A stretch of DNA of 7,188 nt from a virus (lineage: Duplodnaviria; Heunggongvirae; Uroviricota; Caudoviricetes), in IMG/VR virus record IMGVR_UViG_2534681912_000004; one strand, 5' to 3'. Below, piece after piece: positions 851 through 7,188 of this stretch (position 1 is its first letter; each line of letters starts with the position of its first letter). The position numbers and the translations under genes are program-made. The notes under the pieces were generated by a model that had not been told where the DNA came from, ran no database searches, and saw nothing but the letters and a program-made list of their open reading frames with translations.

Positions 851-877
851 AATAAAAAAGGCGTCATTTCTGACGCC
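851..877 (-). terminator. Rho-independent terminator candidate between J and lom (minus-strand orientation)
   Basis: Stem ggcgtca (860-866) / tgacgcc (871-877) with 4-nt loop. On the minus strand this reads GGCGTCA-GAAA-TGACGCC followed by TTTTTTATT (reverse complement of 851-859). Sits 20 nt downstream of the J stop (TGA at 899-897). Confidence 0.65.
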
Positions 878-896
878 CGTATTGGGGTTATAAAAT

Positions 897-3800
897 TCAG
901 CTGATACTGATGCCTGCGGTGGCTTTCTTCATCACCACAACCAGCAAATCGCTGATACTTGCTGTGGGATACCAGTCATTTACCAGCCATGCTGACACCG
1001 AAAACTCCAGCGTCATGTGACCGTGACCGGCAGGCATATCAATAACGCCACTGTAAATCAGCGTATTATCCAGCGCGGTACGGTTATAAATTTCAGCACC
1101 GTTTTTCCGCACTATCAGACGGCATGAGGAGTAAATATCAGTATGCTCTCTCTCATGTTTAGCGCCGCTGAATGCCACCGCCGGAATAACAATCTGCCGG
1201 TCAAACGGCTGATCGTCATAAATCCTGACGGTAATGGTCCCTGATGGCCACCGTTCCGGTGCACGGGAGTCCCGGGGGAAAGCTTTGCCCACTGTTTTAA
1301 CGAGATCGCCTTCAATCTGGTTCGCGGACAGTTTTCCCAGAACCCGGCAGTTCTCGTTAATCGTGACGTTGTTGAGCGTCCCGGAGTTCGCATTCACGTT
1401 ACCGCTGATATCGGCATTTTTCGCCGTCAGCCGCCCGTCCGGTGTCAGGGAAAATGCCGGAGGATTACCGCCGCTGGTAATGGTGGGAGCCGTCAGATAT
1501 TTCAGGAACACTTCATTCATAAATATCTGATCGCCCTGACCAACAAACATCGGCTTTGTGTTGCCATTCGCAGGATTAACCATCGCAATCCTGTCCGCCG
1601 CCAGCAGCACCTGACTCTGCATGCCGTCAGGGGTGTTCTCAATACCGGCACCAATACCCGCGATATAAAGGCGTCCGTCCTGCATCTGCTGCAGCTTCAC
1701 AGCCCACATGCTGTTCAGGTTATTATTTGTATCAACCTGAACCTTCTGTATCTGCTGGATCGCTGCACTCTGGTCTTCCAGTTTCTTATTGACGGTCTGC
1801 GTGATTTCATTACTGACATCCGTGATGGACGTTCTGATTTCCGCCAGGTCAGGCGCAAGCTGACCGTTATCAATCTGCGTCCACAACTCCTGAGCCAGAT
1901 GGGTTTTCCCTATCTCTCCTTTGAAAAAATCCAGATAGCCGGATGCATCATCACTCGGCTGGCCAACAGCCTCCACGAATGCCGATTTGCCAACGGTGTT
2001 CACACTGCGGATGTAAAAATAATAATCATGGCCCGGCTTGATATTGATACTGGCAGCTATCCAGTACAGCGCCGTGCCAAGATAGCGGGCTGTGGTTTCA
2101 ACCTGCCTGATATCCGCAATCCGCTTTTCCGAGAACCAGAACTCAAACTGTACCGTCGGATCATAAACGGCAAGATACGGCGTGGCGGTTATCTGAAAAT
2201 AGCCCGGCGTCAGCTCAATCCGCGACGGCGCTGCCGGTGCGGCAATCCGGAACGATACCGATGCCGGATCGCCCTGCTGCCCCCAGGCATTTGCCGCCCG
2301 GACTGTCAGCCTGTAGTTTCCCAGCGCCAGTTGCGTGAAGCGGTATGTGGTTTCCGTCGTCCTGGCCGTGCTGACCAGCCGCTCACTGCCGTCATCCGCT
2401 GCCACGGTCAGACGAAGCATAAAGCTCACGCCCTTCACCACCTTCGGCGTGTCCCATCGCGCCAGCACCTGATATTCCCCGCTGTCTGCGGTGACTTCGG
2501 CGGTCAGGTGCTGCACCGCTGGCGGCGTGACACCATTCACCGTGCCGCTCTGGTCGCCGTCAAAGTGCGCCCCGTTATCCACGATGGCCTCTTTCTCCGG
2601 CACATGCTGCACGGCGGTGATGGCATACGTGCCGTCGTCGTTCTCACGGATACTCACGCAGCGGAACAGTCGCTGGCGCAGCGTCGGCAGCTTCAGCCCC
2701 CATACGCTGTATTCAGCAACACCGCCAGGAACACGGCTCACTTTTACCTTCACGCCGTCGGTGACGGACTGAACCTCCACGCTGACCGGACTCCCCTGCC
2801 CGTCAACCAGGCTTATCAGCGTGATGCCGGAGGATGGCAGCGTGATTTCACGGTCGAGCGTCAGCGTCCGCGTCTGGCTGTTCACCGCCAGCACCCCCCC
2901 GCCGATGCTGATACCCGCATAGTCATCATCACAGATTTCAATGACATCGCCCGGTACATGGCGAAGCCCTTCGGCACCCACGCTGAAGTCCACGGTCTGC
3001 GTTTCCAGCAGCTCCGTTTTAATCAGCCACAGCCCGGCGCGGTGTGCCTGCCCCCGGCTGGTACAGCCAAAGGCATCCATCTTCGTGACGTTACGACCGT
3101 AACGGGCAATGGCCTGCGTATCCTCAACAAGCTCTGTCGCCGTCTCCCAGCCGTTATCCGGGTCAATCCAGTTCACCTCAACGGCATTATGGCGGTCCTT
3201 CAGGGCGCTGAAGCTGTAGCGGAACGGCGCGCCATCATCCGGCATCACCACATTACTGCGGTTATAGGTCCACACCTTATCCGACGGTCGGTCCTGCACG
3301 AACGTCAGCGTCTGCCCGTTCCATACCGGCATACAGCGCATCGCCGAGCAGAAATCACTGAGCACATCCCACGCCTTGCGCTGTGTGGTCAGGTACGCAT
3401 TACAGGTGATGCGCGGCTCCGTGCCGCCAAAGCCGTCCGGCACTGACTGGTCGCAGTACTGGCCGATGACATACAGCGCCCATTTGTCCACATCCGCCGC
3501 ACCAAGACGTTTCCCCATGCCGTAGCGTGGATGGGTCAGCATATCCCACAGACACCAGGCCATGTTATTGCTGTATGCTGGCTTAAACGTTCCGTCCCAG
3601 ATACCGCTGTATTGCCGAGTCTGCGGGTTATAGTTCGACGGCACCTGCAGAATACGCCCGCGCAGATGATAATTACGGCTCACCTGCTGGCTGCCGAACT
3701 GCTCCGAATCCACCTGTACGCCGACCAGTGCCGTGTTCGGGTAGCACTGTTTCACATCGATGATTTCGGTGTATGACGACCAGAGCGTTTTGTTCTGCAG

Positions 3801-4376
3801 CTGGTCTGTGGTGCTGTCCGGCGTCATCCTGCGCATCCGGATATTGAACGGACGCGGCGGCAGGTCACCCACCACCACCGATGCCAGATACTGTGAGGTG
3901 GTTTTGCCTTTAATGGTGATGTCTTTTTCCGTCACCCAGCCACCATTACGCTGTATCTGAACCAGCAGGCGGACTTCCGACGGATTCCGGTCCCCCTTTG
4001 AGGTGGTTTCCACCAGTGCCTGCACACCGAAGGTAAAGCGCAGACGGTCGATGTTTGCCGACGTGATGGTCCGGGTAATCGGCGTGTCGTACTTCACTTC
4101 CGTACCCAGCACCGTCTCGGAGCCGGAGGATTCAAATCCCTCCGGCGGTGTCTGCTCCTGCTCACCGGCCCGGAACACCACCGTGACGCCGGATATATTG
4201 GTATTCCCCTCACTGTCCAGCACCGGCGTACTGTTCAGCAGCACGCTTTTTAATCCATCCACCGGACCTTCAACCGGCCCTTCGCTGATGGCATCAATCA
4301 CACTCAGCAGCTGCGTGGACTTCAGGTTGTCCTTCGCTTCGCGCGGGGTATGCCCCTTACTGCTGCCTTTACCCAT
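897..4376 (-). CDS. J: Tail tip central fibre / host specificity protein J (1159 aa)
   Basis: Single 3480-nt ORF. N-terminus [34 protein letters not shown]... and long internal stretches match lambda gpJ as I recall it (about 1132 aa). ATG at 4376 preceded by GGAG. Position between I and lom is syntenic with lambda. The C-terminal third differs in composition (see findings). Confidence 0.95.
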
Positions 4377-4436: not shown

Positions 4437-5078
4437 TCAGCGACCAATCACCACAACCTGACCACCATCACCTTCATCTGCCGTGCTGATCTCCTGAGAA
4501 ACCACACGTGACCCCACGCGCATTTCACCGTACAGAACCGGCAGAACATTGCCCTGGGCAACCATGTTATCCAGTGAAGAAAAATAGGTGTTCTGTTTGC
4601 CGTTATCCGTTGTCTGTGTGCGGGGGGTTTTGGGTTTAGGGGCCAGCATCTGTGCAACACCGCCAAGCGTCATACTGGCACCGAGAGAAAACAGCAGATT
4701 ACTCGCCATAATTCCTACCCCCGGCATCCATATAGCAACCGCCATAACAGCCGCCCCCAGCACAGCCTGAAACACACCGCCACTTTTGGCTCCTGCCAGA
4801 CGCGGCACGATATGGATCACGGCACCATTTGCCAGCGGCTCATTAAGACGGGCAGACAATTCGGTTTCACCTGCATCACGCCCGGCAATGCGTACCTGGT
4901 ACCAGCCGTCGCTCAGTTTCTGACGAAATGCCGGGATCTGCATGGCCAGCGCCCGGATGGCTTCGGACCCCGTTTTCACTCGAAGGTCGATGCGGCGGCC
5001 AAATCGTTGTAAATCCCCGTAAAGGCAGATGCGTGCCATGCCCGGTGACGCCAGAGGGAGTGTGTGCGTCGCTGCCAT
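4437..5078 (-). CDS. I: Tail tip assembly protein I (213 aa): N-terminal ubiquitin-like domain plus hydrophobic segment
   Basis: ORF translation MAATHTLPLASPGMARICLYGDLQRFGRRIDLRVKTG... and C-terminus ...NTYFSSLDNMVAQGNVLPVLYGEMRVGSRVVSQEISTADEGDGGQVVVIGR match lambda gpI as I recall it. Start is 103 nt inside the 3' end of K in another frame, which I recall is also the lambda arrangement. RBS-like GAGAGAGG upstream, with a rather long spacer of about 11 nt. Confidence 0.9.
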   Translation of the reverse strand: MAATHTLPLASPGMARICLYGDLQRFGRRIDLRVKTGSEAIRALAMQIPAFRQKLSDGWYQVRIAGRDAGETELSARLNEPLANGAVIHIVPRLAGAKSGGVFQAVLGAAVMAVAIWMPGVGIMASNLLFSLGASMTLGGVAQMLAPKPKTPRTQTTDNGKQNTYFSSLDNMVAQGNVLPVLYGEMRVGSRVVSQEISTADEGDGGQVVVIGR

Positions 5079-5719
5079 TTGTCGGTGTACCTCTCTCGTT
5101 TGCTCAGTTGTTCAGGAATATGGTGCAGCAGCTCGCTGTCACCACAGTAAATGGCGGCATGATTCGGCACCGATGAACCAAAACAGCACAGCAGCACATC
5201 GCCCGGCTGCGCCGCTGACAACGGCACCTGATACAGCCCTGTGGCCTCCAGATTATCCAGATAGAGATTCTGACCGTTACGCCACCAGTCATCCCCGCGA
5301 TGAAAATCCGGCATCTCAATTCCCGCCAGATGGTAAGCGTCCCGGAACAGCGTGTAACAGTCCGTTACCCCGTGCTCAAAGCGCCGCCCGGTGAGATGCG
5401 GCACACAGCGGAATTTATGAATCGCCCCCCGGCAGACCAGCCACCACGGCAAATCACTCTGTACCTGCAGCCGCCGGTCGGCCTCACTCAGCCAGGGCAG
5501 ACCACCGGGGTGGCTGTGGACCAGCGCCACAATCTCTCCCTGCATTTCTGCACTCAGCCAGTCCTCCGGCGACATCCGGAAATACTCCTCCGGCTCACCG
5601 GAGATATTCACGCAGGGAAAATATCTTTCCTCCTCCGGCGTTCTCACCACGAAGCCGCACGACTCCGCTGGCGCACATCGCCGGGCGTGCGCCAGAATCG
5701 CTGATTCTGTCTCTGTCAT
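4976..5719 (-). CDS. K: Tail tip assembly protein K (JAMM/MPN metalloprotease-like domain plus NlpC/P60-like domain). Longest ORF is 247 aa; alternative internal start at 5575 would give 199 aa
   Basis: Translation contains an exact JAMM motif HSHPGGLPWLSEAD (H-x-H-x7-S-x2-D) and an NlpC/P60-like Cys-His region (GVTDCYTLF ... NHAAIYCGD ... LLHH). Position between L and I is syntenic with lambda. The start at 5719 lies 5 nt after the L stop but has no obvious SD. The internal ATG at 5575 has a strong GGAGGAG SD 9 nt upstream. Confidence 0.85.
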   Translation of the reverse strand: MTETESAILAHARRCAPAESCGFVVRTPEEERYFPCVNISGEPEEYFRMSPEDWLSAEMQGEIVALVHSHPGGLPWLSEADRRLQVQSDLPWWLVCRGAIHKFRCVPHLTGRRFEHGVTDCYTLFRDAYHLAGIEMPDFHRGDDWWRNGQNLYLDNLEATGLYQVPLSAAQPGDVLLCCFGSSVPNHAAIYCGDSELLHHIPEQLSKRERYTDKWQRRTHSLWRHRAWHASAFTGIYNDLAAASTFE

Positions 5720-5724
5720 GGGAT

Positions 5725-6423
5725 TTACTGCGAAAGTTTGTTAATGGAAAGGAAGCTGCCAAAGTTGCCGACATTATTGCGAAACTTACAGCCACTCAGG
5801 CATTTGCTGCATTTATCCTTCGTGATATCGGACGTCGGCTGGTCATATTCATCCGCGACCGCCGGACCGTGATAACCGCACTCATCGCCGCGATAGGTCC
5901 AGGTGCAGGTGTTGGCCAGCATGATACGTCCCGGAAAAACAGCGCCATCCGTTTCAGTCGGCGTGGACAGTACAAAAGAGGCACTGACCGCGCTCAGTTC
6001 GCTGCACTGCTCGATGCGCCAGCGGCTGATCACCTCCTGCTCCGGATCGGCTTCGCTGTTTCCGTTGACGAAGTTCACCGCATCCAGAAAGCGGGCGTAA
6101 ACCTTACGCCGGACCACCGTTCCGCCGACCAGACTCTGCAGATCTTCCGCCATCCCGGTGATCATGCCGTGCAGGTTAGAGACCGCCAGTGTCGGACGGG
6201 CAGCACTGCCCTTGCCGTTCATCTCAAATCCACTCCCCTGAATGGGATAGGCCTGATACTGCCGACTCTGCCAGGTGACAGACTCACCTTTTTCGTTCTG
6301 CTCATTACAGAAAAAGTAGCGATCCCCGCCTACCTCGGTCAGGTCGATTTCCCAGAGCACCACGCTGGCCGACTGCTCCGCACGAATGCATTCATTCAGC
6401 GTTTCCTGTTGTATGTCCTGCAT
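5725..6423 (-). CDS. L: Minor tail / tail tip protein L (232 aa) with C-terminal cysteine cluster
   Basis: Translation MQDIQQETLNECIRAEQSASVVLWEIDLTEVGG... through ...CSKCLSGCKFRNNVGNFGSFLSINKLSQ is near-identical to lambda gpL as I recall it. Its ATG overlaps the M stop (TGATG at 6425-6421). Confidence 0.95.
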   Translation of the reverse strand: MQDIQQETLNECIRAEQSASVVLWEIDLTEVGGDRYFFCNEQNEKGESVTWQSRQYQAYPIQGSGFEMNGKGSAARPTLAVSNLHGMITGMAEDLQSLVGGTVVRRKVYARFLDAVNFVNGNSEADPEQEVISRWRIEQCSELSAVSASFVLSTPTETDGAVFPGRIMLANTCTWTYRGDECGYHGPAVADEYDQPTSDITKDKCSKCLSGCKFRNNVGNFGSFLSINKLSQ

Positions 6424-6761
6424 CAGATCACCACTTCGTCAAACTGACACGAAAAATCGGTATAGGTGATATGTTCTGTCGCTGACCACGTTCGACACAC
6501 CACTCTGATTTTTCTGTTAATACCCGGCGGGCGCCAAAAAAAAGATTTATAGCCTTCATGCCGGGCTAAAAATTTTTCAAATGAATCACGTTCATTCGCC
6601 TCAACTTTGAAATCACAGGTGAAAACGCGCAGAGAATGATTAAGTCCATTTGGACTTCGTTGCTCATAACCATCGCCAAATCTTACAGTTTTTATCGATG
6701 GTTTATTTTCTGTTTTCATTCCATCCTCTGGTAACCAGTGAAATTCTTCCGTATTAGCCAC
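6423..6761 (-). CDS. M: Minor tail protein M (112 aa, GTG start)
   Basis: ORF with conserved core TVRFGDGYEQRSPNGLN...KSFFWRPP...FDEVVI resembling lambda gpM (KVRFGDGYSQRAPAGLN...KSFLWTPP...FEQVVN, from memory). The N-terminal F-x-W...PEDGM aligns with lambda F-R-W...KPGM, supporting the GTG at 6761. Alternative ATG at 6719 (Met15). Stop overlaps the L start. Confidence 0.85.
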   Translation of the reverse strand: MANTEEFHWLPEDGMKTENKPSIKTVRFGDGYEQRSPNGLNHSLRVFTCDFKVEANERDSFEKFLARHEGYKSFFWRPPGINRKIRVVCRTWSATEHITYTDFSCQFDEVVI

Positions 6762-7095
6762 TTAACATTCCCCCATCACGTCGCATATTTAACAGATTGC
6801 CCTGCACCCGCTGATCAACCATCCCCATAAGTGCTTTTATTGCCTGAGGGCCAATCTCTCCATTCTGGCCGTCATTTTGAATAGTGATTTGGTATACAGG
6901 GGCATAGGTAATATCTCCGCCTCCATTACCACTTTTACTATTAACAGCTCTGACACCAAGAGAACCATCGGAAGTTCGTGTTAATGGCATAATGGCTTCC
7001 GGACCAGCCTCACCAAAAACACCAGCCCCTCTTGCAAAAGCAAAAAATTGCGGGGAATCATAAATTGAACCGCCCCGGGTTTCCTGGAGAGTATT
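6754..7095 (-). CDS. H: Tail tape measure protein H, C-terminal segment (114 codons open; frame blocked upstream by in-frame TAA at 7098-7096 and TGA at 7110-7108)
   Basis: Translation ...GGSIYDSPQFFAFARGAGVFGEAGPEAIMPLTRTSDGSLGVRAVN...ITIQNDGQNGEIGPQAIKALMGMVDQRVQGNLLNMRRDGGMLSG resembles the C-terminal end of lambda gpH (...VVINNDGTNGQIGPAALKAV...MRDGGLFSGGGR, from memory) and the widespread FxxGG...GExGPEAI tape-measure motif. The ORF track reports only the last 78 aa from an internal ATG at 6990. Stop TAA at 6756-6754 overlaps the M start region by 8 nt. Confidence 0.7.
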   Translation of the reverse strand, partial: NTLQETRGGSIYDSPQFFAFARGAGVFGEAGPEAIMPLTRTSDGSLGVRAVNSKSGNGGGDITYAPVYQITIQNDGQNGEIGPQAIKALMGMVDQRVQGNLLNMRRDGGMLSG

Positions 7096-7188
7096 TTATC
7101 TGTGAACTCAGGCTGCCAGATCATCGTTTCCGATGGAAGCATAATAAGCTTTTTCTGCTTCTGCCGGAGGAGTATGGCCCAGCCTTTC

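Follow-up and report, generated by a model that had tools for sequence, protein, structure and literature searches.

The subject of this analysis is the J gene carried by a 7,188-nucleotide (nt) stretch of DNA (hereafter the window) from IMG/VR virus record IMGVR_UViG_2534681912_000004, assigned to the Caudoviricetes. The explanation that we regard as highly likely is that this is a complete lambda-family J, a three-part mosaic whose receptor-binding domain (RBD) is of the OmpC type, and that the drop in GC content inside the gene is a seam common to its whole clade. A first-pass annotation, made from the sequence alone, had taken J to be chimeric, with a GC step near residue 725 marking the start of an exchanged C-terminal part. 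As shown below, the gene is a mosaic relative to lambda and its receptor-binding end has been exchanged; the GC step at amino acid (aa) 725, in contrast, is not a junction.

The open reading frame (ORF) list and the translation place J at 897..4376 on the minus strand, with 1159 codons and a stop codon at 899-897. These coordinates had been correctly given in the first-pass annotation, and positions 897-2200 indeed encode the C-terminal ~434 aa. In a Pfam search all six gpJ domains were present in canonical order, with E-values between 6e-32 and 3e-42: FNIII-A_GpJ (aa 86-207), Phage-tail_3 (aa 330-485), Ig_J (PF24421; aa 610-714), Ig_J_second (aa 716-818), Phage_Tail_Tip (aa 872-1000) and Ig_GpJ_C (aa 1029-1159). 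The lambda gpJ structure in the PDB (8iyk_J) was matched with E = 0, the alignment covering aa 1-836 and aa 866-1158 of this J. The genes around J run in the order tape-measure (H) remnant, M, L, K, I, J, lom and start of stf, and this tail-tip cluster is colinear with those of lambda, phage 21 and phage PhiR55_1; the neighbours M, L, K, I and Lom were recognised by Pfam, and an Stf N-terminus follows lom. Because of the domain order, the synteny of the tail cluster and the E = 0 match to lambda gpJ, the ORF is identified as the full-length lambda-family tail-tip protein J. This is the complete gene for the tip attachment (host specificity) protein, as the match to the J of PhiR55_1 also indicates. 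The ORFs of J, I, K, L, M and lom are intact, each with a Pfam match along its full length, and this J is apparently functional.

Evidence for the mosaic came from sliding-window DNA identity to seven J genes, from junctions located by the maximum chi-square method and from aa identity calculated module by module. All of the modules lie on the minus strand. The first 803 residues are 95.5-97.5% identical to lambda J, depending on the module, and 96-98% identical to the J proteins of phages 434 and 21. This lambda-type part starts with the hub (FNIII-A_GpJ and Phage-tail_3; aa 1-609, window 2550..4376; GC ~60%), which is 97.5% identical in aa sequence to lambda and 75% to J of the Stx-phage lineage. 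It continues with the first FNIII/Ig domain (Ig_J; aa 610-714, window 2235..2549), 97.1% identical to lambda and 57-61% to WGPS2 and PPompW, and ends with the second FNIII/Ig domain (Ig_J_second; aa 715-803, window 1968..2234), 95.5% identical to lambda and already low in GC. The close match of the N-terminal part to lambda J, which the first-pass annotation had noted, is thereby substantiated.

The linker and alpha-helical shaft that follow (aa 804-871, window 1764..1967) are of the phage 21 type, with 97.1% aa identity to phage 21 and 33.8% to lambda and 434. The central straight fibre, a beta-prism assigned by Pfam (Phage_Tail_Tip) and by aa identity (aa 872-990, window 1407..1763), is of the 21/PPompW type, being 96.6% identical to phage 21, 98.3% to PPompW and 63.9% to lambda; the last ~50 of its residues are conserved across all types, and gene nt ~2820-2990 show 83-89% DNA identity to lambda and 434. 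The last module, delimited by the junction with WGPS2 and by a match to the engineered gpJ '1A2' described below, is the putatively OmpC-binding, exchanged RBD of the '1A2'/Stx-phage type (Ig_GpJ_C; aa ~987-1159, window 900..1419). Its aa identity is 98.2% to WGPS2, 97.6% to PPompW, 66.7% to phage 21, 63.2% to A8 and 46.5% to lambda.

Along the gene, the nearest relative switches abruptly and with statistical support. The junction relative to lambda falls at gene nt 2409 (aa 804, window 1968; chi-square 651). Relative to Stx2a_WGPS2 it falls at gene nt 2958 (aa 987, window 1419; chi-square 127), where mismatches decrease from 28% to 2%, and relative to phage 21 at gene nt 3096 (aa 1033, window 1281; chi-square 608), with identity dropping over ~2900-3096. 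A further junction, relative to PPompW, was located at gene nt 2125 (window 2252; chi-square 232), 50 nt from the GC step. By these comparisons J is a mosaic of at least three modules, namely a lambda-type part, a phage-21-type part and a Stx-phage-type RBD, and on the same comparisons the exchanged receptor-binding domain is made up of the last ~170 aa and not, as previously proposed, of the last ~430.

The relatives of this J are each alike in some of its parts and different in others. Lambda gpJ (P03749; PDB 8iyk, 8xck and 8xcj) is similar in gene position, in its six-domain architecture, in the GC step at nt 2175 and over aa 1-803; it differs from aa 804 onward, where this J has a shaft insertion of 28 residues, a prism that is 64% identical and the divergent RBD. 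Phage 21 J (OL657228) resembles it at ~97-98% aa identity in the hub, the FNIII domains, the long shaft and the prism, and differs in the RBD, which in this J is without the 6-residue loop insertion present in 21 and A8 and bears its own insertion of 4 residues, and in having LamB as its reported native receptor. WGPS2 and PPompW, which share its RBD, have a hub that is only 75% identical to that of this J. The J of PhiR55_1 (PV340571), a temperate phage induced from an ECOR strain and with E. coli C as its GenBank host, is alike throughout and is the same three-module mosaic, with 97.6% nt identity over the full length. The mismatches between the two genes amount to 3.2% before gene nt 2566 and 0.2% after it, only 2 nt differing in the distal part, a pattern suggesting that the distal ~900 nt (window 897-1811) passed recently, and in a separate event, between J genes that had otherwise diverged slightly.

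The receptor of this J can be approached through the chimeras described by Brodel et al. 2024 (Nature 632:877, PMC11338833), in which natural J C-termini were fused to lambda J at aa 964. This graft point corresponds to aa ~991 of the window J and adjoins the natural junction, which is at aa 987. Chimeras 1A2 and A8 gave OmpC-dependent delivery to a recipient from which lamB had been deleted; 1A2 was active with the EDL933 variant of OmpC and not with the MG1655 (K-12) variant, and in wild-type MG1655 it delivered to 5% of the cells, as compared to 98% for wild-type lambda (PMC11338833). The 1A2 DNA was obtained from the supplement of that paper, where it is recoded and contains text-recognition errors, and its translation was aligned by a frameshift-tolerant procedure. 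Over the last 169 aa of the window J, 154 of the 164 readable residues were identical to 1A2; for PPompW this number was 158 of 164. The six leftover mismatches were taken to be text-recognition errors, since each is shared by the three natural sequences and a stop codon is among them. We infer that 1A2 carries a PPompW-type RBD at every reliably readable position, and that four substitutions (I to V, R to K, D to N, S to T) separate the RBD of the window J from it, which leaves 165/169 identical residues, or 97.6%. The C-terminal module of this J would accordingly be nearly identical to a 169-aa module that has already been grafted and tested, and which has natural counterparts in prophage PPompW and in Stx2a phages such as WGPS2. 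The likeness is confined to the RBD, as the shaft and prism of lambda are retained in 1A2, an engineered lambda fusion, whereas those of the window J are of the 21 type.

Because of this near-identity to the experimentally characterised gpJ 1A2 module, the RBD of the window J is likely to be OmpC-dependent and LamB-independent. The porin in question would be OmpC in its EDL933-like and many other variants, and not the K-12 variant of OmpC. The suspicion, raised in the first-pass annotation, that the receptor may differ from what the conserved N-terminus suggests is in line with this result, LamB most likely not being the receptor; its statement that no receptor can be assigned from the sequence proved too cautious.

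Lambda itself binds LamB, into which four bottom loops of its RBD (L1-L4) insert, and one alternative is that LamB has remained the receptor despite the exchanged RBD. The RBD still belongs to the same fold family (Pfam Ig_GpJ_C), phage 21, whose RBD shares 67% identity with that of this J, is a reported LamB user, and single substitutions are able to switch porin use in the J family. The RBD is not, however, a lambda-like LamB-binding one: its aa identity to that of lambda is only 46.5%, with indels in the variable segments. In addition, the nearly identical 1A2 was picked in a lamB-deleted recipient, requires OmpC and delivers poorly to wild-type MG1655, in agreement with the OmpC requirement of the 1A2-type RBD class. 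We therefore consider LamB an improbable receptor for this J.

Several points weigh against our explanation as it stands. The text of the 1A2 sequence was machine-recognised and contains frameshifts, which makes the identity figure an indirect one. Of the four substitutions, two are located in the indel-rich segments where RBDs vary most, and the substitutions could shift the preference among OmpC variants. Porin choice is labile in the J family: phage 21 reportedly uses LamB natively and gains OmpC by the single substitution I1025T, and its RBD is 82% identical to that of the OmpC-using A8. In the source data, the sheet for Extended Data Fig. 2 panel C holds the numbers of panel B and shows no 1A2 delivery to OmpC-EDL933 (PMC11338833). 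As for the structure, the AlphaFold2 model of aa 801-1159, built from the single sequence, was poor (confidence score, pLDDT, of 40.5), and the fold is backed only by sequence homology to solved structures. Among these structures, the OmpC-binding A8 gpJ (PDB 9wca/9wcb) is the best PDB match to the C-terminal 294 aa (E = 5e-126), although its RBD is only 63.2% identical to that of this J.

With regard to the source sheets, panel C (OmpC-EDL933) duplicates the 1A2 and A8 values of panel B (OmpC-MG1655), probably through a copy error (PMC11338833). Delivery by 1A2 to OmpC-EDL933 does appear in the 8a data of the same paper (PMC11338833). A literature search for the receptor of PhiR55_1 found this phage only in a paper on defence systems, which holds no data on its outer-membrane receptor.

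The GC drop at about position 2200, noted in the first-pass annotation, is real. GC content is 51.4% in window 897-2200 as compared to 60.2% in 2201-4376, and a blind search placed the best single change point at gene nt 2175 (window 2202, aa ~725), where GC falls from 60.3% to 51.3%; its chi-square of 26.6 compares with a maximum of 13.6 across 300 shuffles. As a feature, the change point (window 2196..2208, not assigned to a strand; change-point search and shuffles) lies ~10 residues into the second FNIII domain. The contrast is less sharp than the 60-70% versus 42-52% that had been quoted, as windows of 120 nt range over 53-67% GC in the proximal part and 44-61% in the distal part.

This change point, exactly where a GC-marked exchange at ~aa 725 would have left it, is what favors the idea that a single event brought a foreign, lower-GC C-terminal ~430 aa into this J, as does the true junction with PPompW at nt 2125, only 50 nt away. 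The same step is, however, present in lambda J, with the change point at the identical gene nt 2175 (59.2% to 53.5% GC), and it was found at the homologous site, nt 2169-2175, in all eight clade members, i.e., this J and those of lambda, 434, 21, PhiR55_1, Stx2a_WGPS2, PPompW and one Stx2c phage. The J genes of the Stx-phage lineage share it although their hub is only 75% identical in protein sequence. Moreover, the DNA past the step is still 92-97% identical to that of lambda, 434 and 21 for ~230 nt, up to gene nt ~2400; the step sits 234 nt upstream of the point where divergence from lambda begins (nt 2409), and the RBD swap lies farther on, at nt ~2958. No GC discontinuity was thus found that falls on a junction and that the putative parent lacks, and we judge a single exchange at ~aa 725 to be extremely improbable. 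As lambda and the other members of the clade share the step, it is a trait of the clade and not a scar of this gene: the GC drop is a compositional seam of the whole lambda/Stx J clade, and not the footprint of an exchange in the window J.

It could also be argued that the step has no historical meaning and reflects nothing but the amino-acid make-up and structural constraints of fibre versus hub. When the distal protein was encoded with proximal codon choice, 56.3% GC was expected, as compared to 60.2% in the proximal part and 51.7% observed; ~45% of the drop is thus attributable to amino-acid composition and the remainder to codon choice. GC at the first and second codon positions drops as well. 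Amino-acid content cannot, however, explain the decrease of 14 points at third codon positions (GC3), from 73.4% to 59.7%, and the step begins within the second FNIII domain, the fold of which is shared with the GC-rich first one. Neither of two distant J homologues, Serratia Ulliraptor gp39 and mEp234 J, showed the step in full-length alignments, so that it is no automatic outcome of the fold. An explanation by composition alone hence appears unlikely. On account of the same two homologues, the notion that the step is a universal feature of J architecture was rejected.

The GC-rich proximal part of J resembles the GC-rich head-tail arm of lambda, and the composition of its distal part is near that of E. 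coli itself. Throughout the lambda/Stx clade, GC3 is ~73% on the proximal side of the seam and ~57-60% on the distal side. One possible, though rather doubtful, reading is that the seam is an old one at the border between the first and second FNIII domains, and that the distal cassette of second FNIII domain, shaft, prism and RBD had a separate origin or was drawn from a separate and wider gene pool. If so, the unit exchanged in changes of host range would be this whole cassette and hence larger than the RBD, and the PPompW junction would be one instance of its transfer. In the PPompW_EH2246 J, DNA divergence from the window J changes from 27% to ~5% at the border of these two FNIII domains, and the PPompW junction is the only one seen at the GC seam.

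The stretch that had been described as Q/N-rich and heptad-like was examined as well. Glutamine and asparagine make up 23% of it, as compared to 10% of the whole protein, and between aa ~833 and ~888 hydrophobic periodicity at 3.5 residues is raised; when aa 841-892 were tested for a heptad in a single register, the score did not differ significantly from that of shuffles (0.60 vs. 0.51 +/- 0.06, p = 0.15). The Q/N enrichment of the earlier description is thus confirmed. The stretch begins in the shaft and runs to ~aa 897, aligning to the shaft and to the upper end of the prism. In lambda gpJ, the FNIII domains are followed by an alpha-helical shaft (AHS) formed by a three-helix bundle, a beta-sheet prism and an Ig-like RBD (PMC11101478), and aa 804-871 of the window J correspond in position to the AHS helix bundle (PMC11101478). 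The alignment gives the shaft of this J 28 extra residues relative to lambda, as in phage 21 J, and the phage-21-type shaft and prism together are 27 residues longer than those of lambda. The AlphaFold2 model added weak support in the form of low-confidence helices at aa 812-878. We read the Q/N-rich stretch as part of a longer, 21-type helical shaft, that is, as a structural part of the fibre and not as a receptor-binding element; the coiled-coil reading is based on the positional correspondence to the lambda helical shaft and not on the heptad test.

The allele is by no means rare. Of 5426 complete E. coli genomes, 3365 contained the RBD DNA at a coverage of at least 80%, in ~2300 records its identity was at least 95%, and the whole window was matched at a coverage of at least 80% in 3363 genomes. 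Many copies of the distal 359 aa that are 100% identical occur in assemblies and databases, and a protein search with this segment returned, among the 120 matches listed, only E. coli and Shigella copies, 96-100% identical. The allele is among the commonest J alleles in E. coli. One database entry, a 608-aa 'host specificity protein J' of Shigella sonnei (P0001), scored 1107 bits at 96% identity as compared to 802 for exact copies, and may contain a duplicated distal segment.

Although J itself is complete, the element that carries it is probably not. The terminus of an IS3-family element, comprising the last 27 transposase codons and ~42 nt, is matched at 100% identity by window 7066-7188; this sequence adjoins the H frame at 7065/7066, leaving ~104 C-terminal H codons (6754-7065), and most E. 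coli genome matches to the window end at 7065. Because the tape-measure frame is cut by the IS3-family element, the prophage looks tail-defective and is probably unable to build tails alone. PhiR55_1, in contrast, is a complete, viable phage.

It may thus be asked whether J is an inert relic in a defective prophage, never assembled, so that its specificity is of no consequence in this host. The truncated H frame speaks for this, and in the closest genome the region lies in a decayed Rac-like prophage at ttcA. On the other side, the tail genes from M through J, and lom, are intact with full-length Pfam matches, the distal part of J is identical to many other copies and matches a viable phage, and no sign of decay was seen. 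Superinfecting lambdoid phages can acquire intact tail genes from defective prophages through recombination. We give this scenario roughly even chances; it complements our explanation of the gene as a complete mosaic J with an OmpC-type RBD, and does not exclude it.

In the remainder of the window, DNA similarity to lambda, 21 and PhiR55_1 stops at the L/M border (window ~6426-6445); M (6423-6761) and the H remnant (to 7065) belong to another lineage with a low GC content of 40-47%, which marks a further mosaic junction. The K homologue (4976-5719, minus strand), which has JAB and NlpC/P60 domains and whose ORF runs into the start of I, comprises 247 aa, as compared to 199 for K in the annotation of the lambda reference record. 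An antisense ORF at 1899..3446 on the plus strand (515 aa) was set aside as a presumed by-product of GC-rich coding on the opposite strand. Directly after the J stop, a pattern scan revealed a terminator-like, GC-rich hairpin with a T-run (859..878, minus strand), which is a match to the consensus only; phage 21 J has an annotated terminator at the matching position. A second such hairpin with a T-run follows lom (203-182, minus strand), and the total count of terminator-like sites across the window is not above shuffle expectation.

By homology to the structures of lambda gpJ, three copies of J would close the tail tip and extend the central fibre, and the loops of the RBD would bind a trimeric outer-membrane porin. 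Binding would then be relayed through the prism and the shaft, leading to opening of the tip and ejection of the DNA. In the IS-truncated prophage, J probably serves as a reservoir allele for recombination and not as part of a self-sufficient virion.

That modules are exchanged at the distal end of J is textbook knowledge. The present gene, a mosaic of known kind whose RBD class is likewise known and whose allele is very common, leaves the current understanding unchanged. Its analysis nevertheless carries a lesson of method, since a GC step within a gene is no evidence of a recent swap unless close relatives lack the step. For the annotation of lambda-like phages it means that the conserved N-terminus of J is uninformative with respect to the receptor, and that only the last ~170 residues are informative. 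In the present case these residues point to OmpC over LamB, and a nearly identical module has already been used to retarget lambda particles therapeutically.

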